A stretch of DNA of 64,000 bases from Patescibacteria group bacterium (GCA_018971685.1 JAGXAG010000002.1:2276-66275), one strand, 5' to 3'. Positions 4,747-45,020 are shown, counted from the stretch's first letter. Program-made: numbers and translations. The notes: generated from the sequence alone by a model not told the origin.

Positions 4747-5031
4747 ATGTATCAAAGACCCTACACAGCCGAAGAAATTCGAAAATTCTATCCAGATAAA
4801 GCAGAAATTCTGTTAAAAGATTCAGTACATTTATGGAGAGCTGAAACTGGAATTGAATTGATTCACAAAGAGCCGACATTGGAGGAACAGGAAAGAATCT
4901 GGAAGAATTGGAATGAGATGACTGAAGAAATGAAAGCTCAAAGTGATGCAAAAAGTAAGGAACTCTTCGGAATGGACAATGCCACTCATAATCAGGAAAT
5001 TATGAGTAATTGGGGCATAAAGAAGACGTAG
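4747..5031 (+). CDS. Hypothetical 94-aa protein in an AT-rich island
   Basis: Intact ORF in a visibly AT-rich stretch between ychF and leuS. No recognisable motif. Confidence 0.35.
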   Translation: MYQRPYTAEEIRKFYPDKAEILLKDSVHLWRAETGIELIHKEPTLEEQERIWKNWNEMTEEMKAQSDAKSKELFGMDNATHNQEIMSNWGIKKT

Positions 5032-5075
5032 GTCTCATAGAGTTTAAAATATAAATATGATATAAATATTTGTGT

Positions 5076-5246
5076 ATGTTCAAGAAAAAATCCTCGAGAA
5101 AGAAGTTTGTGAATTATCGAGCCAACGAAACGCACTATCAGCCGATCGCGAGTTTCGCGGTGCAAGATAGATTTTACAAATACTTCTTTTTGGCGATTCT
5201 TTTTACGATCGTCACAGCCGTTTATGTCGCCCTGCACATCCGGTGA
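5076..5246 (+). CDS. Hypothetical 56-aa protein with a C-terminal TM tail (basic N-terminus MFKKKSSRKK)
   Basis: ATG at 5076, TGA at 5244. Hydrophobic C-terminus FFLAILFTIVTAVYVAL. Immediately followed by an intrinsic terminator. Confidence 0.3.
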   Translation: MFKKKSSRKKFVNYRANETHYQPIASFAVQDRFYKYFFLAILFTIVTAVYVALHIR

Positions 5247-5271
5247 TGGCAGGTGCTCCGTTGTTTCTTTC

Positions 5272-5302
5272 GAGTCGCCTTGCCTGCGGAGGCGACTTTT
5301 TT
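5272..5302 (+). terminator. Rho-independent terminator (stem AGTCGCCT / AGGCGACT followed by T-tract)
   Basis: 8-bp GC-rich stem, 9-nt loop, then TTTTTTT just upstream of the leuS start. Confidence 0.5.
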
Positions 5303-5320
5303 TATGTGGCGAATTGAGTT

Positions 5321-8224
5321 ATGATGATTTTCATGAAAAAAGAACAGAAATACGCACCCGCCAAGATAGAGAAAAAGTGGCAGAAAAAGTGGGCGGCGGC
5401 GAAAATCTATAAGACGAAAGAAGGCGGAAAGACCGGTAATAAAAGTTCACCGCAAGATAAATATTATGTGCTCGACATGTTCCCATACCCGTCCGGCGAA
5501 GGCTTGCATGTCGGCCACCCCAAGGGCTATATCGCCACCGATGTTGTTTCCCGAATGAAACGCATGCAGGGCAAGAATGTGTTGCACCCCATGGGTTTCG
5601 ACGCTTTCGGACTGCCGGCAGAAAATTACGCGCTCAAGATGAAGAAAAATCCGATGGACTTGACCGCCAAGAATGTGAAGCGGTTCAAAGATCAGCTGGA
5701 AATTCTCGGCTTCGATTATGATTGGTCGCGCGAAGTCAACACCACCGATCCGAAATATTACAAATGGACGCAATGGATATTCTTGCAACTTTTCAAGAAG
5801 GGCCTGGCTTACGAATCATTCGAGCCCATCAACTGGTGTCCTTCATGCAAAACCGGCCTTGCCAACGAAGACATCGAAAACGGCCGTTGCGAGCGCTGTG
5901 GCACACCGGTTGAGAAGAAGCCGATGCGTCAGTGGGTTTTGAAGATTACTGATTATGCGGAGAGGCTTCTGAATGATCTGGATGCAAAAAATAATGACGG
6001 CAAGCCGCTTCTCGATTGGCCGGAATCGATAAAAGAGGCGCAGAGGAATTGGATAGGGAGGAGCGAGGGAGCACTGATAAAGTTTCGATTCCAAGGTCGG
6101 ACCTTGGAAGTGGAAGTATTCACGACGCGGCCGGATACTTTGTTCGGCGTGACTTATTTGGTATTGGCGCCGGAGCACAAACTAGTCCAAGAATTATTGG
6201 CTGATGTGGAAAATCGCAAAGAGGTCGAGGAATATGTCTCAAAAGCGCGATTGGAGACGGAAATAGAGCGCACTGATGTCAAAAAAGAGAAAACGGGCGT
6301 GGAATTGAAAGGCATCAAGGCGATAAACCCGGCCAACAATGAAGAGGTGCCTGTATGGGTGGCCGACTATGTTCTGGCCGATTACGGCACAGGCGCCGTC
6401 ATGGCGGTGCCGGCGCACGATGAGCGCGATTGGGAGTTTGCGAAGAAATTTGATTTGCCTATAAAGGATGTTGTTAGGCATGTTTGGGGCAATAAATTAC
6501 CTAATGAAGAATTTAGAAAAAGTGTATGTGCAATAGTTAGGAATAAGAAAGACGGCAAAATATTATTATTAAAGTGGAAAAACGGTGAGAAATGGATTTC
6601 CCCGGTGATCGGGGGTGTTGAGGATAGAGAATCATATGAAGATGCTGCAGTACGAGAGGTCTTGGAAGAAACTGGTTACAAAGCAAAAATAGTTGAACCT
6701 ATAAGTTTTGAAATAGATTCTCATTTTTTCGCTACACATAAAGGTATTGCTAGGCATAGGACAATCAAACATTTCCTTCTGGAAACAAATGAAGATAGTC
6801 ATGTAGGTGTTTCTAAGAAAGAATCTGAAAAACATGAACTATTTTGGACCACTCTCGATGATGCAATAAGTTGTATAACTCACAGTGATAATAAAATAGG
6901 TCTACAGGGAATTAAATCTGGAAACTATTCCTATATTGGAGAAGGTGTTCTGGTTAATTCTGGTCAATTCAACGGAAAAAATTCAGAGGAAGTCAAAAAA
7001 GAAATCACGGACTTTGTTGGCGGGAAATGGGTGACGAAATACAAATTGCGAGACTGGGTATTCTCGCGGCAAAGGTATTGGGGCGAACCGATCCCGATCA
7101 TTCATTGCGGGAAGTGCGGCGTAGTGCCGGTGCCCGAGAAAGATCTGCCGGTCAAATTACCGAAAGTGAAGTCGTACGAGCCGACCGGGACCGGGGAATC
7201 ACCATTGGCGGCCATAAAGAATTGGGTGAATGTGAAGTGTTCGAAATGCAAAGGCCCGGCCAAAAGAGAGACAAATACCATGCCGCAATGGGCCGGTTCG
7301 TCTTGGTATTATTTGAGATACGAGGATCCCAAGAATGCCAAGAAATTGGTTGATCCGAATAAAGAGAAATACTGGTCGCCTGTTGATCTCTATGTCGGCG
7401 GCGCCGAACATGCCACGCGGCACCTAATTTACGCGCGTTTTTGGCACAAATTCTTATATGACATAGGCGTCGTTTCGGCGATCGAGCCGTTCAAGAAGCT
7501 CCAGAATGTGGGGCTCATTATGGGTGAAGATGGTAGAAAGATGTCCAAGCGGTTTGGCAATGTGGTCAATCCTGACGACATTGTGAATGCTTACGGCGCC
7601 GATACCATGCGCATTTACGAAATGTTCATGGGGCCCTTTGATCAACAGATTTCATGGAGCACTTCAAGCATGGTCGGTGCTCGCAGATTCATTGAAAGAG
7701 TATGGAAATTAAGAAAACACACGGCGAGCGAGGAGGGAGAGGCGCCGACCGGGCGCGTTGATAAAATCTTACATAAGACCATCAAAAAGGTTACGAAAGA
7801 TATCGATGACCTAAAATTCAACACCGCAGTAAGTTCACTCATGATTGCCGCCAACGAATTGGAAAAAGTTAAGTCAATAAGCCGCGAGCAGTTCGAAATA
7901 CTGTTGAAACTGCTGGCGCCGTTCATCCCACATGTTGCCGATGAATTGTGGACCGGTTTCGGCAACAAGAGATCAATCCATGTCTCGGGATGGCCGGTGT
8001 GCGACGAGAAGTTGTCGGCTGAGGAAAAAGTGACGATTGCCGTGCAAGTCAATGGCAAAACGCGCGGTTCATTCGAGGCACTTATTGATATTCCTGACGA
8101 TGAATTGAAAAATAAGGCTCTTAGTTTGCCGGAAATAAAAAAATGGATTGACGGTAAAGTTTTGAAGAAAACCATCGTCGTTAAAAACAAGTTGGTCAGT
8201 CTTGTGGCCTCTGATTTATCTTAA
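5321..8224 (+). CDS. leuS: Leucyl-tRNA synthetase carrying an inserted Nudix hydrolase domain (about aa 386-540)
   Basis: HIGH motif HVGHPKGY. KMSKS motif KMSKRFGN. CP1 editing-domain end-motif VPAHDERDWEFA. C-terminal anticodon-binding region. Between ...LPIKDVV and GEGVLVNSGQFNG lies about 155 aa with a perfect Nudix box GGVEDRESYEDAAVREVLEETGY. Confidence 0.95.
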   Translation: MMIFMKKEQKYAPAKIEKKWQKKWAAAKIYKTKEGGKTGNKSSPQDKYYVLDMFPYPSGEGLHVGHPKGYIATDVVSRMKRMQGKNVLHPMGFDAFGLPAENYALKMKKNPMDLTAKNVKRFKDQLEILGFDYDWSREVNTTDPKYYKWTQWIFLQLFKKGLAYESFEPINWCPSCKTGLANEDIENGRCERCGTPVEKKPMRQWVLKITDYAERLLNDLDAKNNDGKPLLDWPESIKEAQRNWIGRSEGALIKFRFQGRTLEVEVFTTRPDTLFGVTYLVLAPEHKLVQELLADVENRKEVEEYVSKARLETEIERTDVKKEKTGVELKGIKAINPANNEEVPVWVADYVLADYGTGAVMAVPAHDERDWEFAKKFDLPIKDVVRHVWGNKLPNEEFRKSVCAIVRNKKDGKILLLKWKNGEKWISPVIGGVEDRESYEDAAVREVLEETGYKAKIVEPISFEIDSHFFATHKGIARHRTIKHFLLETNEDSHVGVSKKESEKHELFWTTLDDAISCITHSDNKIGLQGIKSGNYSYIGEGVLVNSGQFNGKNSEEVKKEITDFVGGKWVTKYKLRDWVFSRQRYWGEPIPIIHCGKCGVVPVPEKDLPVKLPKVKSYEPTGTGESPLAAIKNWVNVKCSKCKGPAKRETNTMPQWAGSSWYYLRYEDPKNAKKLVDPNKEKYWSPVDLYVGGAEHATRHLIYARFWHKFLYDIGVVSAIEPFKKLQNVGLIMGEDGRKMSKRFGNVVNPDDIVNAYGADTMRIYEMFMGPFDQQISWSTSSMVGARRFIERVWKLRKHTASEEGEAPTGRVDKILHKTIKKVTKDIDDLKFNTAVSSLMIAANELEKVKSISREQFEILLKLLAPFIPHVADELWTGFGNKRSIHVSGWPVCDEKLSAEEKVTIAVQVNGKTRGSFEALIDIPDDELKNKALSLPEIKKWIDGKVLKKTIVVKNKLVSLVASDLS

Positions 8225-8249: not shown

Positions 8250-8278
8250 TTGACTTGTGAACAACAAGGTGATAAAAA
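8250..8278 (+). promoter_or_regulatory. Candidate sigma70-type promoter (TTGACT - 17 nt - TAAAAA) upstream of the 8321 gene
   Basis: -35 TTGACT at 8250-8255. 17-nt spacer. A-rich -10-like hexamer at 8273-8278. About 43 nt upstream of the ATG. Confidence 0.3.
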
Positions 8279-8320
8279 TAAAGTCTCGAACGAGACAACA
8301 TTATAAGTAAACAAGCAAAC

Positions 8321-9367
8321 ATGGCCAACGCAACAGTTTCATTCAAGCCAAAACAGGTCGTAAAGAGACTTTTATCTCCGTTACCGGATCGAGCCAGGGA
8401 AGTTATGCAGATGCGTTTCGGATTGGGTAAGGATGTCCGCATGCTGACTCTGGACTCCATAGGACAAAAATACGGCATTACCAGAGAGCGCGTGCGCCAG
8501 ATCGAAGCGTATTCCATAGAATCGATCCGCAAATCCGAGGAATATCGTCTAGAAAAAGCCGCCTTTGCGGAATTGGAGGAACTGTTGTATTCGTTGGGCG
8601 GAGTAATCGTCGAAGATGATCTTCTCGGCCATGTATCCAAAGACAAGAGCTTGCGCAATCATATCCATTTCCTGCTTGCGATCGGCGAACCGTTCAAAAA
8701 GCTCAAAGAAGACGATGACTTCCGGCATCGCTGGCATGTCAACGAAGAGTTGGCGAAAAGTGTGGAGAACGCGCTCAAAAAGCTTTATGACAATCTCAGC
8801 ACTGACGATCTTTTGCCGGAATCAGAAGTTATCAACAAGTTCTTGAAACATTTGGAAGAAGTCTCGGAAAAATACAAAAATCAAGAGGTGATAAAGCGCT
8901 GGTTGGCCATATCCAAGCGCATAGGCAAAAACGCGCTCGGTGATTGGGGTTCGGCCAAATCGTCGAACATTAAGAACAAGGGTGTGCGCGATTACGCTTT
9001 TTTGGTGGTGCGCAAACACGGTTCGCCGATCCATTTTCGCGAGGTCGCCAAGCAGATCGAAAAGCTGTTCAATAAAAAGGCGCACACGGCAACGACGCAT
9101 AACGAGCTCATCAAAGACAAGAGATTTGTCTTGGTCGGCCGCGGCCTTTACGCTCTGGCCGAGTGGGGCTATATGCCGGGTGTCGTTCGCGATGTCATTC
9201 AGGCCATCATTGCCAAACACGGACCGATGACCAAGGACGAAATCGTCGACAAGGTGATGAAAGAGCGTTATGTCAAGGAAAATACCGTTACAGTCAATTT
9301 GCAAAACCCGAAGTATTTCAGGAGGGATGGAAGCGGCAAGTATTCGGTGGCGGCGGTGGTTCAGTAA
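8321..9367 (+). CDS. Sigma-70 region-4 HTH domain protein with C-terminal HARE-HTH-like winged helix
   Basis: N-terminus REVMQMRFGLGKDVRMLTLDSIGQKYGITRERVRQIEAYSIESIRK matches sigma-70 region 4.2 (RpoD-like MRFG...TRERIRQIEAKAL). C-terminal YAFLVVRKHGSPIHFREVAKQIEKLF...RFVLVGRGLYALAEWG matches the HARE-HTH pattern of RNAP delta subunit N-domains. Confidence 0.6.
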   Translation: MANATVSFKPKQVVKRLLSPLPDRAREVMQMRFGLGKDVRMLTLDSIGQKYGITRERVRQIEAYSIESIRKSEEYRLEKAAFAELEELLYSLGGVIVEDDLLGHVSKDKSLRNHIHFLLAIGEPFKKLKEDDDFRHRWHVNEELAKSVENALKKLYDNLSTDDLLPESEVINKFLKHLEEVSEKYKNQEVIKRWLAISKRIGKNALGDWGSAKSSNIKNKGVRDYAFLVVRKHGSPIHFREVAKQIEKLFNKKAHTATTHNELIKDKRFVLVGRGLYALAEWGYMPGVVRDVIQAIIAKHGPMTKDEIVDKVMKERYVKENTVTVNLQNPKYFRRDGSGKYSVAAVVQ

Positions 9368-9427
9368 CCAAGTTCGATGGTATCAAGGGCTCGCCCCGGC
9401 GCATCGGCTATATGATATAATAATGCC

Positions 9428-10705
9428 ATGTCAGTATCCGAGGCCATCTCTTTTGTCATAAATAATTTTCAATCGGGCGCCTGGCCGACCATCGTCGATA
9501 TTCTGATCACGGTCGCGCCGATATTCTTGGCGGTCATACTGTTCCGCATCATGTGGGACCTCTGGGTACAGTATATTCGCGCCAAGAATTACATGGCGGC
9601 CGAAAGGATCGTGCTGGAATTGCGCTTGCCGAAAGACACTTACAAATCGCCTTTGGCAATGGAAACTTTTCTGAACGCGCTTCACAATACATCAGATGGC
9701 AGTAAATATGCGCAATTTTGGCAAGGCAATGTGCGGCCATATTTTTCATTGGAATTGGTATCGATCGAAGGCGCGGTAAAGTTTTTCCTCTGGATGGAAA
9801 AGATACGCAAAACCAATCTGATTTCGGCGCTATATTCTCAATTTCCAGAAATTGAAGTCTCTGAAAGAGAAGATTATGCCAAGAGTGTTCATTTCGATCC
9901 GAAAGTGACCAGGATTTGGGGCGGCGAATTTGTCTTTACCAAGAAAGACCATGAACCGTATCCGATCAAGACTTATGTCGATTATGGCTTGGACAAAGAC
10001 CCGAAAGAAGAATACAAGATTGATCCGTTGACGCCGCTTTTGGAATGGCTTGGCAGCGTGCCGCCGAACCAGCAAGCTTGGGTCCAGATCATTATCAGAG
10101 CGCACAAAAAAGCCAGAAAGAAGGGGCATATATTCAAGGAAACGGATGTCTGGGAAGACGACATTAAAAAGCTGATCAATGAGACAATGATCCGCAACGA
10201 AAAAACAAAAATTACCGGTGCTCCGACGAAAGAAGGCGAATTTCCACGCCCGCCAACTTTGTCTGAAGGCGAGAAGAAGTCTTTGGAAGCGCTCGAACGG
10301 CGGCTTACCAAACATCCATTCGATGTCGGCATACGCGCCGTGTATATTTCTCCGAAAGACGAATTTGACACCCCGTATGTCTTGGGCGGCATTATCGGCA
10401 GTTTCAAACATTTCTCATCTGCAAATCTGAACGGTTTCAAGCCGAACGGCAAAGTCTGGCACGGCCGGCTTGATTATCCTTGGCAAGATTTTCGCAATTA
10501 CAGGAGGAATTTGTACAGCAAACAGGCGCTCATGGCGTACAAGCGCCGGTCGTATTTCTATCCGCCGTTCCAGAGAAAACCGATAGTCATGAATTCGGAA
10601 GAATTGGCGACGATTTACCACTTCCCGGGCAGTGTTGCGGCAACGCCTTCGCTGGAAAGAGTGCCGTCGAAGAAGGCGCAAGCGCCGGCGAATTTGCCGA
10701 TGTAG
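9428..10705 (+). CDS. Hypothetical membrane-anchored protein (N-terminal TM, 425 aa)
   Basis: Hydrophobic segment PTIVDILITVAPIFLAVILF near the N-terminus. Rest is hydrophilic with no motif I recognise. Confidence 0.5.
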   Translation: MSVSEAISFVINNFQSGAWPTIVDILITVAPIFLAVILFRIMWDLWVQYIRAKNYMAAERIVLELRLPKDTYKSPLAMETFLNALHNTSDGSKYAQFWQGNVRPYFSLELVSIEGAVKFFLWMEKIRKTNLISALYSQFPEIEVSEREDYAKSVHFDPKVTRIWGGEFVFTKKDHEPYPIKTYVDYGLDKDPKEEYKIDPLTPLLEWLGSVPPNQQAWVQIIIRAHKKARKKGHIFKETDVWEDDIKKLINETMIRNEKTKITGAPTKEGEFPRPPTLSEGEKKSLEALERRLTKHPFDVGIRAVYISPKDEFDTPYVLGGIIGSFKHFSSANLNGFKPNGKVWHGRLDYPWQDFRNYRRNLYSKQALMAYKRRSYFYPPFQRKPIVMNSEELATIYHFPGSVAATPSLERVPSKKAQAPANLPM

Positions 10706-11832: not shown

Positions 11833-12234
11833 CTATCGAGCAGAAGCGAGTGAGTTATGGATGTTGCTTGCCAATACGAATGTTGGACCGCTGATAGCCG
11901 ATTTCAGATCGGTTAGGCTGAACGGTTTCGTTAAATAAAAACCACCAGCGTCATTGATCCGATCTCCGTCATTCGCCACGCCATCTGACATGATGATTAT
12001 TGGCTGGAATGGCGAGAGTTCTTTGGCGCTTCTGCACAATGCCAATCCGGCGTTCTGATGCCCAACATCGATGTCGGTGATGGTCAGTGACACATCATTT
12101 TGTGTCAGGAATTGGTAAGCTTGTTCCACATCACTGTGTATTTCGACTTGATACCCAAGTCTACTCAATGAATGAGCAATCAGTTCACGGAGATCCTTTT
12201 CAGTCGATACTACGAGCGCTAACGATCTATTCAT
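11833..12234 (-). CDS. Orphan response regulator, receiver (CheY-like) domain only
   Basis: LALVVSTEKD...ITDIDVGHQNAGL...IIMSD...LTKPFSL has the D, D, T, K pattern of REC domains. Start taken at the internal Met (MNRSLALVV). Confidence 0.8.
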   Translation of the reverse strand: MNRSLALVVSTEKDLRELIAHSLSRLGYQVEIHSDVEQAYQFLTQNDVSLTITDIDVGHQNAGLALCRSAKELSPFQPIIIMSDGVANDGDRINDAGGFYLTKPFSLTDLKSAISGPTFVLASNIHNSLASAR

Positions 12235-12280
12235 ATGTATTGTGTTGTTCAAGTTTAACTTATTTGATATCATAACTGAC

Positions 12281-13471
12281 ATGAAAAGTCAAGGAAAAAA
12301 GGTTTTTGTCGGCCTTTCGGGCGGCGTGGACAGCGCGGTTTCGGCGGCTTTGCTGAAAAAGATGGGTTACGAAGTCACGGGTGTTTTCATCAAAGTATGG
12401 CAGCCGGATTGGATCGAATGCAGTTGGCGGGAAGAGCGGCGGGACGCGATGAGAGCGGCGGCGCATTTGGGCATACCGTTCGTCACGCTCGACTTGGATC
12501 GAGAATATAAACAGGGCGTGATCGATTATATGCTTGCGGAATACGAGCAAGGCCGGACACCGAATCCGGATGTAATGTGCAATCGCAAGGTCAAATTTGG
12601 GGCTTTTTACGATTGGGCGATGTTAAATGGCGCAGATTTCGTGGCGACTGGTCATTATGCGCGGATACGCATACCCGGGATCGAAAAACCTCCGACCGTC
12701 GAGCCGGCGACCAGTGTTTCCCGGCGCGAGCGCAAGCTGGCCGGGACGGAAACACTTCGTCGCGACGAGGAGGGAGAGGGTTTTTCACTGATGGCTGGAC
12801 GCGATCAAAATAAAGACCAGTCGTATTTCCTGTGGACGCTAAAACAAGAACAATTGCCGCGTATATTATTTCCGGTCGGAGACTTAACCAAGCCGGAAGT
12901 CAGGAAGTTGGCGGAAAAATTAGGGCTGCCAAATGCCGGCAAAAAAGACAGCCAGGGATTGTGTTTTATCGGCAAAATCGACCTTAAGGAATTTTTGGCT
13001 CATTATGTCAAAACCGAGCGGGGGAATGTGCTGGACGAATCGGGGGGAATTATCGGTACGCATCCCGGAGCTTTATTCTTTACGATGGGTGAAAGACACG
13101 GGTTTACGGTCGACAAGAAGACGCGAGATGCAGACAAACTTTATGTCATCGATAAGGACATGGATCAAAACACGATAACAGTGGCGGCTCGCGCGCGCGG
13201 TAACTTCCCGAGCGCCGGTGACATGAGTCGGACTGTTCGCATAAGCCAAGTCAATTGGATAATGGGCAGTGCCCCGGAAGGATATATTGGCGTAAAAACA
13301 TTGCAAGCGCGCGGACGGTATAGGCAAACATTGGAAAGCGTGATCATAAAATCCATAGGATTGACTGAAGCTGCAGTGGAATTTGAAAAGCCTCAAAAGA
13401 CCGCGACATCCGGGCAGTCATTGGTCATTTATGATGGCGATGAATGTCTGGGCGGCGGCGTGATCGACTAA
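12281..13471 (+). CDS. mnmA: tRNA-specific 2-thiouridylase
   Basis: PP-loop VFVGLSGGVDSAVSAALL. Conserved MnmA core with catalytic Cys residues. Start at MKSQGKK. Confidence 0.9.
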   Translation: MKSQGKKVFVGLSGGVDSAVSAALLKKMGYEVTGVFIKVWQPDWIECSWREERRDAMRAAAHLGIPFVTLDLDREYKQGVIDYMLAEYEQGRTPNPDVMCNRKVKFGAFYDWAMLNGADFVATGHYARIRIPGIEKPPTVEPATSVSRRERKLAGTETLRRDEEGEGFSLMAGRDQNKDQSYFLWTLKQEQLPRILFPVGDLTKPEVRKLAEKLGLPNAGKKDSQGLCFIGKIDLKEFLAHYVKTERGNVLDESGGIIGTHPGALFFTMGERHGFTVDKKTRDADKLYVIDKDMDQNTITVAARARGNFPSAGDMSRTVRISQVNWIMGSAPEGYIGVKTLQARGRYRQTLESVIIKSIGLTEAAVEFEKPQKTATSGQSLVIYDGDECLGGGVID

Positions 13472-43952: not shown

Positions 43953-45020
43953 ATGGCTTCATTCAAGGACAGAAAAGACAAATTCCTGGGAAAATTTTCA
44001 AATGACATCGGCATCGACTTGGGGACGGCAAACACCCTGGTGTATGTGCGCGGCAAGGGAATAGTGGTCAATGAGCCGTCGGTGGTGGCCGTCAATCAGA
44101 AGACCGGACAGGTGGTGGCGGTCGGCAGTGCCGCAAAGGAAATGCTCGGCAGGACGCCTCTCCATATAACAGCCGTCAGGCCGCTGGTCGACGGCGTTAT
44201 TTCAGACTTCGAAGTGACCGAAGAAATGCTGTCGTATCTGATGAAGCGCGCCGGCGAATTCATGCCGAAAAGATTTTTGGGTCCGAGAGTCGTCGTGGGC
44301 GTGCCTTCCGGCGTGACCAATGTGGAAGTCAGAGCTGTGCGCGACGCCGCCAAGAACGCCGGCGCCAGGGAAGTCTATATAGTGGAACAGCCCATGGCTG
44401 GCGCCATCGGCGTTCGACTGCCCGTCCATGATCCGGTTGGCAGCATGGTTGTAGACATAGGCGGGGGCACCACCGACATTGCCGTAATTTCATTGGGCGG
44501 CATCGTCAGGTCCAAGAATTTGAAAATCGCCGGCGACAAATTCAACAATGACATCATTACTTATATCCGCAACGAGTTCAAGATCTTGATAGGAGAAACA
44601 ACCGCTGAGCAAGTCAAGATCGCTGTCGGCTTGGTCGTTGCCGGCGAACCGCTGGAGACCACTATCCGCGGTCGAGACTTGATCACCGGTTTGCCGCGCG
44701 AAGTGATCATTACGGATTCAGACATCCGGGAAGCCATGGCGCAGTCGGTCGGCATCATCGTCGAGTCAGCCAAAGAGGTGTTGGAAATGACGCCGCCGGA
44801 AATCCTCTCCGACATCATGAAGCGCGGAGTGCACCTAGTCGGCGGCGGCGCGCTCATCAAAGGCTTGAATGTGTTGCTCTCCGAGGCGCTCAAAATCCCG
44901 GTGACTGTCGCCGATGATCCATTGACGGCGATCGCGCGCGGCGCCGGCGTGATCCTCGAAGACTTGGACACTTATCGGAGCGTGCTCATAGAAAGCGAAG
45001 ACGACATAAATGCAAAATAA
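43953..45020 (+). CDS. mreB: Rod shape-determining protein MreB
   Basis: IGIDLGTANTLVYV phosphate-1 motif and full actin-like fold. 355 aa. Confidence 0.95.
   Translation: MASFKDRKDKFLGKFSNDIGIDLGTANTLVYVRGKGIVVNEPSVVAVNQKTGQVVAVGSAAKEMLGRTPLHITAVRPLVDGVISDFEVTEEMLSYLMKRAGEFMPKRFLGPRVVVGVPSGVTNVEVRAVRDAAKNAGAREVYIVEQPMAGAIGVRLPVHDPVGSMVVDIGGGTTDIAVISLGGIVRSKNLKIAGDKFNNDIITYIRNEFKILIGETTAEQVKIAVGLVVAGEPLETTIRGRDLITGLPREVIITDSDIREAMAQSVGIIVESAKEVLEMTPPEILSDIMKRGVHLVGGGALIKGLNVLLSEALKIPVTVADDPLTAIARGAGVILEDLDTYRSVLIESEDDINAK

Follow-up and report, generated by a model that had tools for sequence, protein, structure and literature searches.

What does a protein do that carries the -35-reading head of a primary sigma factor without the remainder of one? 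The question is raised by an open reading frame (ORF) in a stretch of 64,000 nucleotides (nt) from a Patescibacteria group bacterium (GCA_018971685.1, JAGXAG010000002.1:2276-66275; hereafter the window), which an initial annotation, made from the sequence alone, described as sigma-70 region 4.2 joined to a HARE-type helix-turn-helix (HTH). We refer to the encoded protein as S4HARE. We propose, and give an even chance to, the view that S4HARE is a stand-alone, non-sigma, sequence-specific promoter DNA-binding regulator of the Parcubacteria group. The ORF and its parts are listed below, the boundaries of the winged-helix units being approximate.

8321-9367, + strand: S4HARE ORF, 348 amino acids (aa), sigma region 4 followed by four winged-helix units
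8348-8536, + strand: sigma-70 region 4, about aa 10-72, with helices at 10-18, 23-33, 44-51 and 55-71 and the recognition helix T54-R-E-R-V-R-Q-I-E62
8546-8743, + strand: winged-helix unit 1, aa 76-141, variable, mean net charge -2.4 (model, hhalign)
8744-8965, + strand: winged-helix unit 2, aa 142-215, variable, about neutral (model, hhalign)
8966-9175, + strand: winged-helix unit 3, the HARE-HTH, aa 216-285, most conserved part of the protein, mean net charge +4.8 (Pfam)
9176-9364, + strand: winged-helix unit 4, aa 286-348, conserved, mean net charge +5.2 (model, hhalign)

The ORF proved to be as annotated, in that it begins at the first start codon past an in-frame stop and its translation is identical to the sequence quoted at the time. 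Pfam places Sigma70_r4 (PF04545) at aa 18-71 (E 6.9e-15; 54.7 bits vs a cut-off of 24.1) and HARE-HTH (PF05066) at aa 224-282 (E 4e-8; 34 bits vs a gathering cut-off of 25.9), and thus both of the profiles that the initial annotation had expected score above their cut-offs. NCBIfam sigma-factor models align to S4HARE by their last ~60 positions only. A sequence search of the PDB likewise returned sigma region 4 chains only, the best being SigA/RpoD region 4 (E 7.5e-10). An AlphaFold2 model, built on a divergent alignment, is compact (mean predicted local distance difference test score, pLDDT, 94.8; predicted template modelling score 0.82), and contains no segment of 3 or more residues with pLDDT below 50. 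It consists of a complete sigma region 4 and four units of the H-b-H-H-b-b winged-helix type, of which the HARE-HTH is the third. The earlier domain assignments were therefore correct in kind and need adjusting in extent: the N-terminal module is a sigma-70 region 4, although it comprises the whole region (4.1 plus 4.2, four helices) rather than 4.2 alone, and the HARE-HTH is present, although a fourth unit follows where it had been taken for the C-terminal end. By hhalign profile comparison, units 1 and 2 are related at E 5.9e-5, and units 3 and 4 at E 6.7e-5; unit 4 also gives weak profile matches to other winged-HTH families. Within the HARE-HTH unit, the columns P236, H238, F239, H260, N261, L263, G273-R-G275 and Y277 are invariant.

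This architecture is the property of a large family. The closest relatives of S4HARE (the best 120 of at least 8,000 candidates in a word-indexed search) all range from 341 to 352 aa in length and share 74-81% identity with it. An exhaustive search of representatives of 50%-identity clusters yielded 590 proteins at E <= 1e-30, nearly all of them 330-385 aa in length and alignable from end to end. Sigma70_r4 and HARE-HTH were both present in every one of the 32 divergent members tested (33-54% identity), with a best HARE-HTH E-value among them of 6.5e-16.

The evidence that carries our proposal lies first in the sigma module. In Foldseek searches of the PDB, it falls on SigA/RpoD region 4 with root-mean-square deviations (rmsd) of 0.8-1.6 Å for the best superpositions and 0.8-2.9 Å overall, and sequence identity over the best-superposing matches (rmsd <=1.6 Å) is 37-44%. 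The matches include the DNA-bound structures 1ku7, 1rio and 3n97, the first being the complex of Taq sigma4 with -35 DNA that provides the structural basis for the contacts considered here. Upon alignment with E. coli sigma70, S4HARE residues R55, E56, R57, R59 and Q60 correspond to R584, E585, R586, R588 and Q589, which contact the -35 hexamer, while R32, T43 and L44 correspond to R562, T572 and L573, which make backbone contacts. S4HARE thus possesses the same R-E-R-x-R-Q contacts as RpoD/SigA, together with the equivalents of the other three residues. The five hexamer-contacting residues are kept in 136-137 of 137-138 representatives, and all eight positions in at least 135 of 137-138, at overall identities of 33-55%. 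Positions K593 and R596 of sigma70, which contact activators, are not conserved in S4HARE. Among sigma factors, exposed residues that contact the -35 element vary with promoter specificity. That they are invariant here argues for a conserved target of the TTGACA type.

Charge and conservation were measured across 138 representatives. The mean frequency of the top residue is 0.55 in sigma4, 0.68 in the HARE unit and 0.56 in unit 4, and 0.35 in units 1 and 2; net charge is about +5 in each of sigma4, the HARE unit and unit 4, about -2 in unit 1 and about 0 in unit 2. The protein as a whole is strongly basic, with an isoelectric point (pI) of 9.6 (9.57). Its conservation is extreme: in 49 of 49 loci, none of the other three genes of the downstream cluster is as well conserved as S4HARE (mean 66.7% vs 47.9, 46.0 and 52.0%), and in the same loci S4HARE is conserved above both LeuRS (68.5 vs 56.2) and YchF (69.3 vs 62.7). 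By this measure of sequence, the family is under strong purifying selection.

The second line of evidence comes from the promoter of the gene. The initial annotation proposed TTGACT and TAAAAA elements 17 nt apart, and these are in place, with an extended -10 in addition.

8250-8278, + strand: S4HARE promoter, -35 TTGACT at 8250-8255, 17-nt spacer, extended -10 TG at 8270-8271, -10 TAAAAA at 8273-8278 (consensus scan)

The pattern TTGAC-N13-18-TGNTA lies upstream of the S4HARE gene in 71 of 73 related loci. The identical promoter pattern also precedes other ORFs of the window (7 matches vs 1.7 expected; local consensus TTGAC(T/A)-N-TGNTA), indicating that TTGAC-TGNTA is the general housekeeping promoter type of these organisms. 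We therefore discarded TTGACT...TGATA as a gene-specific motif, and only a distal, extra hexamer is specific to this gene. Sites of the form TTGAC-N4-7-TTGAC occur 22 times in 842 kb, and 16 of these 22 lie within 200 bp upstream of the S4HARE gene. A second, upstream TTGAC accompanies 14 of 72 S4HARE promoter sites, compared to 1 of 84 other promoter-like sites (Fisher p 1.4e-4, uncorrected for kinship). The distance from the start of one hexamer to the start of the other is 11 bp in 13 cases and 12 bp in 1, or about one helical turn. At these tandem sites the hexamers are retained and the intervening spacer sequence varies; one locus (L072) has three copies. In the part of the family with tandem hexamers, S4HARE would feed back on its own promoter, and the arrangement of these sites suggests that it is probably autoregulated. 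A perfect palindrome, GTCTCGAACGAGAC, was also observed at 8283-8296, in the 5' untranslated region between the -10 element and the S4HARE start codon; a scan marked it as a terminator-like element of the minus strand, and it has no obvious counterpart in the other loci.

How might such a regulator work? The complete region 4, bearing the full -35-reading apparatus of a primary sigma factor, would bind hexamers of the TTGACA/TTGACT form, the consensus -35 element in these genomes. The basic and conserved HARE-HTH and unit 4 would make further contacts on adjacent DNA, while the variable, neutral-to-acidic units 1 and 2 would act as a rigid spacer, such that one monomer would offer three DNA-reading heads. 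Seated on -35-type hexamers, or on the extra hexamer one helical turn upstream, S4HARE would modulate initiation by the sigma-A holoenzyme. Regulation could run in either direction, as repression by competition or as activation, and the size of the regulon is likewise conjectural. A -35-binding transcription factor was among the functions first suggested for this protein, and it is the one favored by the near-invariant contacts, the pI of 9.6 and the phased extra TTGAC hexamers, which are found almost exclusively at the gene's own promoter.

Several considerations weigh against this proposal. DNA binding by S4HARE is a prediction from its sequence and model. A recognition helix identical to that of primary sigma factors would be no less expected of a module that acts while docked on RNA polymerase (RNAP), and the very high conservation fits a subunit of the core machinery at least as well as it fits a regulator. 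Moreover, the HARE-HTH of the delta subunit binds RNAP, not DNA (PMC7749165). The tandem hexamers are confined to a divergent sub-clade (54-65% identity) and the promoter in the window has a single TTGACT, so the argument for autoregulation rests on that sub-clade; the 14 tandem loci are phylogenetically related, so that the p-value given above ignores shared descent, and the distal hexamer could be part of a second, overlapping promoter.

High conservation and a basic charge would also suit a nucleoid-associated or chromosome-organizing protein, that is, an abundant multi-HTH binder with little promoter specificity and an architectural role. S4HARE has three conserved HTH heads and is conserved at the level of housekeeping proteins, its tandem winged-helix array is like those of the scaffolds UFL1/DDRGK1 and Dcc1, and the HARE region of one family member weakly matches the winged helix of B. 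subtilis Rok (23 bits, below cut-off). Nevertheless, near-invariant, base-specific sigma4 residues argue for a defined target sequence, and phased TTGAC hexamers at the gene's own promoter argue for sequence-specific action. We give an architectural role a small chance.

More credible, if still unlikely, is an accessory factor bound to RNAP, with sigma4 on the beta-flap tip helix and/or HARE on beta', serving as a general initiation factor or as a competitor that displaces region 4 of sigma-A, the region-4 mimic that the initial annotation had also offered. The complete region 4 fold of S4HARE includes the 4.1 helices, which form the flap-binding groove in sigma factors. Its HARE unit resembles delta both in sequence, with a match to the RNAP delta model TIGR04567 of NCBIfam at aa 224-283 (E 6e-6; 26.3 bits, under the curated cut-off of 42), and in fold, since Foldseek matches this one unit to the B. 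subtilis RpoE (delta) model 9a6y_A. Conservation above LeuRS and YchF is as expected of core machinery, and some Joint Genome Institute (JGI) records label members of the family 'RNA polymerase delta subunit'. A pure flap mimic, however, needs no invariant DNA-contacting residues. In addition, the geometry of RNAP would put flap and jaw on opposite sides of the enzyme, and a compact protein of 348 aa is unlikely to reach both. As for flap docking, Foldseek alignments to chimeras of SigA region 4 and the flap tip run beyond sigma4, over 109-114 columns, a hint that helix 79-91 of S4HARE may itself occupy the flap groove in cis.

A closer comparison with delta (RpoE) of the Firmicutes also bears on a polymerase-bound role. 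S4HARE shares with delta a HARE-type winged helix with the wing motif ...RF-x-L-x-G-x-G-x-(W/Y)-x-L... Delta, of ~170 aa, consists of a single HARE domain and a polyanionic tail of net charge -47, a competitor of nucleic acids (PMC7749165). In contrast, S4HARE is basic, and carries sigma4 and three more winged helices; its C-terminus is a basic winged helix, and a polyanionic disordered region is absent. With a score below the delta cut-off and no acidic tail, its HARE unit is of the HARE type and is not an RpoE equivalog. Since the action of delta depends on the polyanionic tail that S4HARE lacks, a delta-like role is unlikely, and the missing tail counts against the RNAP-bound accessory factor as well.

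A further version of the protein as core machinery, which we consider doubtful, would make S4HARE a stoichiometric, essential component of initiation, in which a region 4 detached from sigma, and fused to a winged-helix array that anchors it to RNAP or DNA, supplies or duplicates -35 recognition in trans at most promoters. Were this so, S4HARE would count as a general transcription factor of a kind new to bacteria rather than as a regulator of particular genes.

Is S4HARE a sigma factor, or a piece of one? No match to Sigma70_r2 was found in Pfam or NCBIfam, and residues 76-348 form four winged helices with no sigma region 2 or 3. The initial annotation had remarked on the absence of regions 2 and 3, and this stands: 96 bp separate the S4HARE ORF from the leuS stop codon, and a region-2 probe matches nothing in the window. 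S4HARE therefore has the region 4 of the sigma-70 family and lacks region 2, by which that family is defined, and for want of region 2 it is not a sigma factor. Primary sigma factors differ from S4HARE further, in that it is without regions 1.2, 2 and 3 and places region 4 at the N-terminus, ahead of four winged helices; lacking those regions, it has no means of melting the -10 element or of binding to the clamp helices of beta'. A faint sigma4-like tblastn match at 44211-44339 lies inside MreB and was set aside.

S4HARE might instead supply the region-4 half of a split, two-subunit sigma factor, with region 2 provided in trans. Sigma2 and sigma4 on separate polypeptides are known from SigO-RsoA of B. 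subtilis, in which, as in S4HARE, region 4 resides on a polypeptide without region 2 (PMC7826278), and S4HARE does have a complete region 4 with a recognition helix of the primary-sigma type. SigO differs in having no winged-helix array and in the type of its recognition helix, that of S4HARE not being of the extracytoplasmic function (ECF) type, and the 270 winged-helix residues of S4HARE have no known counterpart in any sigma factor. Furthermore, no region-2 ORF was detected in the 64-kb window or within the ~6-kb flanks of 74 loci by an E. coli region-2 probe, which divergent versions could escape. The sigO and rsoA genes, in comparison, are neighbors. A search for rpoD or a region-2 ORF across the window, the related loci and a contig extension likewise came up empty. 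We regard the chance of a split sigma factor as slight.

That S4HARE is the remnant of a disrupted full-length sigma gene, or an artefact of gene calling, has a negligible probability. Nothing speaks for it beyond the occurrence of region 4 by itself. Against it, ~590 clusters at 50% identity share a length of 330-385 aa and the same architecture, the family is under purifying selection, a conserved promoter occupies the gap of only 96 bp upstream, and the structural model is compact and of high confidence. The initial annotation had itself raised a 3' fragment as the finding that would overturn it; length instead holds at ~340-360 aa across ~590 clusters, and the few long members are fusions to the products of neighboring genes, SecF or a DnaA C-terminus, with no sigma region 2 or 3 even in these. 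The two representatives concerned are P0260 (552 aa), with a C-terminal DnaA C-terminal HTH, and P0163 (659 aa), with an N-terminal SecF. Both are probably products of read-through or gene calling, although the fusion to the DnaA C-terminal HTH could be genuine.

We next consider where the family occurs. A protein identical to S4HARE is deposited as KGQ27_00940, 'hypothetical protein', from a Patescibacteria group bacterium. Named members come from Taylor-, Nomura-, Campbell-, Niyogi- and Ryanbacteria and from 'Paceibacterota', and those of Taylor- and Campbellbacteria, whose lineages we looked up, belong to the Parcubacteria group of the NCBI taxonomy. The family thus spans lineages of the Parcubacteria group, which is the extent covered by our taxonomy look-ups. 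The initial annotation had asked about conservation across the Candidate Phyla Radiation (CPR); what emerges is conservation throughout the Parcubacteria group. Among the related loci (L002-L074), many record titles read 'uncultured Candidatus Saccharibacteria bacterium' and one 'Gammaproteobacteria'. The S4HARE copies in these records are 54-81% identical to the protein of the window, as are those in records labelled Parcubacteria group or Patescibacteria, and for this reason the Saccharibacteria and Gammaproteobacteria labels look unreliable and were given no weight.

A shorter homologue of 306 aa, 27% identical to S4HARE, is encoded at 4983-5903 of an IMG/VR contig (L077); it retains the TRERVRQIE helix and the HARE motif, and is preceded by small ORFs of phage-like appearance. 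Some phages, perhaps of CPR bacteria, may thus encode a version of S4HARE. A phage origin of the family was rejected, given that only two full-length IMG/VR matches were found, one of them in a phage-like context. The remaining IMG/VR matches are to region 4 only, in phage sigma factors, and the whole architecture has no match in BFVD.

The database names of family members are automatic ones, such as 'sigma factor-like helix-turn-helix DNA-binding protein' and 'HTH HARE-type domain-containing protein'. In the literature, searches that paired HARE-HTH with sigma, with CPR or with delta returned no paper on the family. The family is thus catalogued under automatic names, and is uncharacterised. 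Proteins with a stand-alone region 4 and split sigma factors are already known. Nevertheless, we found no description in the literature searched of a HARE-HTH combined with sigma region 4, nor of a complete region 4 of the primary-sigma type joined to a four-unit winged-helix array, at fixed length and conserved across a group of superphylum level. Unit 3 genuinely belongs to the HARE-HTH family (PF05066), other members of which include ASXL, HB1 and proteins associated with restriction enzymes, and their partner domains differ from those of S4HARE. The top whole-chain Foldseek matches are UFL1-DDRGK1 (8b9x, E 1.3e-4) and Dcc1 (5msn), in which, as in S4HARE, consecutive winged helices form one rigid body; template modelling (TM) scores are ~0.2, and no homology is implied. 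A further analogy may be drawn with eukaryotic RNA polymerase factors of the TFIIE/Rpc34 type, which also have tandem winged helices.

To our knowledge, CPR bacteria, the ultra-small Parcubacteria included, have tiny genomes and few recognizable transcription factors, and almost nothing is known of their transcription control. S4HARE appears to put the -35-reading head of a primary sigma factor to use in a protein that is not a sigma factor. Should it bind -35 hexamers, it would compete or cooperate directly with the housekeeping holoenzyme at promoters, a regulatory principle that, as far as we know, has not been described for cellular bacteria; if it rides on RNAP, it would be a lineage-specific polymerase subunit. 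At 348 aa, it offers an easily expressed target for a first biochemistry of CPR transcription, for which the phased TTGAC hexamers are a ready test substrate.

The neighborhood of the gene is well conserved, the order leuS - S4HARE - P425 - yceG/mltG - mnmA being kept in essentially all loci with enough flank. P425 is the 425-aa membrane protein whose co-occurrence with S4HARE the initial annotation had suggested checking.

9428-10705, + strand: P425 (DUF8128, PF26449), 425 aa, a long N-terminal membrane helix and a VirB4-N-terminal-like domain (synteny, Pfam, model)

The P425 model has a pLDDT of 77, and its best PDB folds are the N-terminal half of the type IV secretion ATPase TrwK/VirB4, including the membrane anchor (8rtd and 7o41; probability 0.97-1.0, TM ~0.35). 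No ATPase domain was found in P425. It has more than 4,800 homologues, and among the 120 listed every one with a named source is from Patescibacteria, of Parcubacteria type or from an unclassified 'bacterium'. The P425 gene has an extended -10 of its own, TGATATAAT at 9413-9421, ending 6 nt before the ATG, and the interval 9413-9428 contains neither a -35 element nor a Shine-Dalgarno sequence. A spacing of 6-7 nt between the extended -10 and the ATG is kept in 25 of 54 loci. Given this short distance and the missing Shine-Dalgarno, the P425 mRNA is a candidate leaderless transcript, as its sequence suggests.

Terminator-like hairpins follow S4HARE in some loci, and in distant loci an ORF of 165-231 aa, encoding a membrane or secreted protein, is inserted between S4HARE and P425. 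Together with the promoter proper to P425, these features argue against an S4HARE-P425 operon, and by its sequence context S4HARE is an independent transcription unit. The co-occurrence of the two genes is real as synteny, yet it looks like conserved gene order rather than a functional pair. P425 was likewise rejected as a membrane-bound anti-sigma partner, in view of its VirB4/TrwK-N-terminal-like fold, its own promoter and the intervening gene in distant loci. The inserted ORF is found in L053, L055, L056, L062, L069 and L070 at about 7030-7730; its product begins MADAP..GGGWG and goes on with a hydrophobic helix and a stretch rich in Ser and Thr, features that point to a small protein, either secreted or in the membrane.

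Two further observations concern nearby genes. The leuS gene (5321-8224, + strand) encodes a NUDIX hydrolase domain at aa 398-515 (~6512-6865; E 1.5e-16), directly after the editing domain. The leuS genes of 30 related loci have this insert too, at 29-43% identity, and it is thus a conserved feature of LeuRS in this lineage. Divergent from mnmA, a receiver-only response regulator with no output domain is encoded at 11833-12282 (- strand). A promoter-like site, TTGACT...TGATA at 12264-12292, overlaps the start codon assigned to it by machine, and translation therefore probably begins at an internal methionine (MNRSLALVV).

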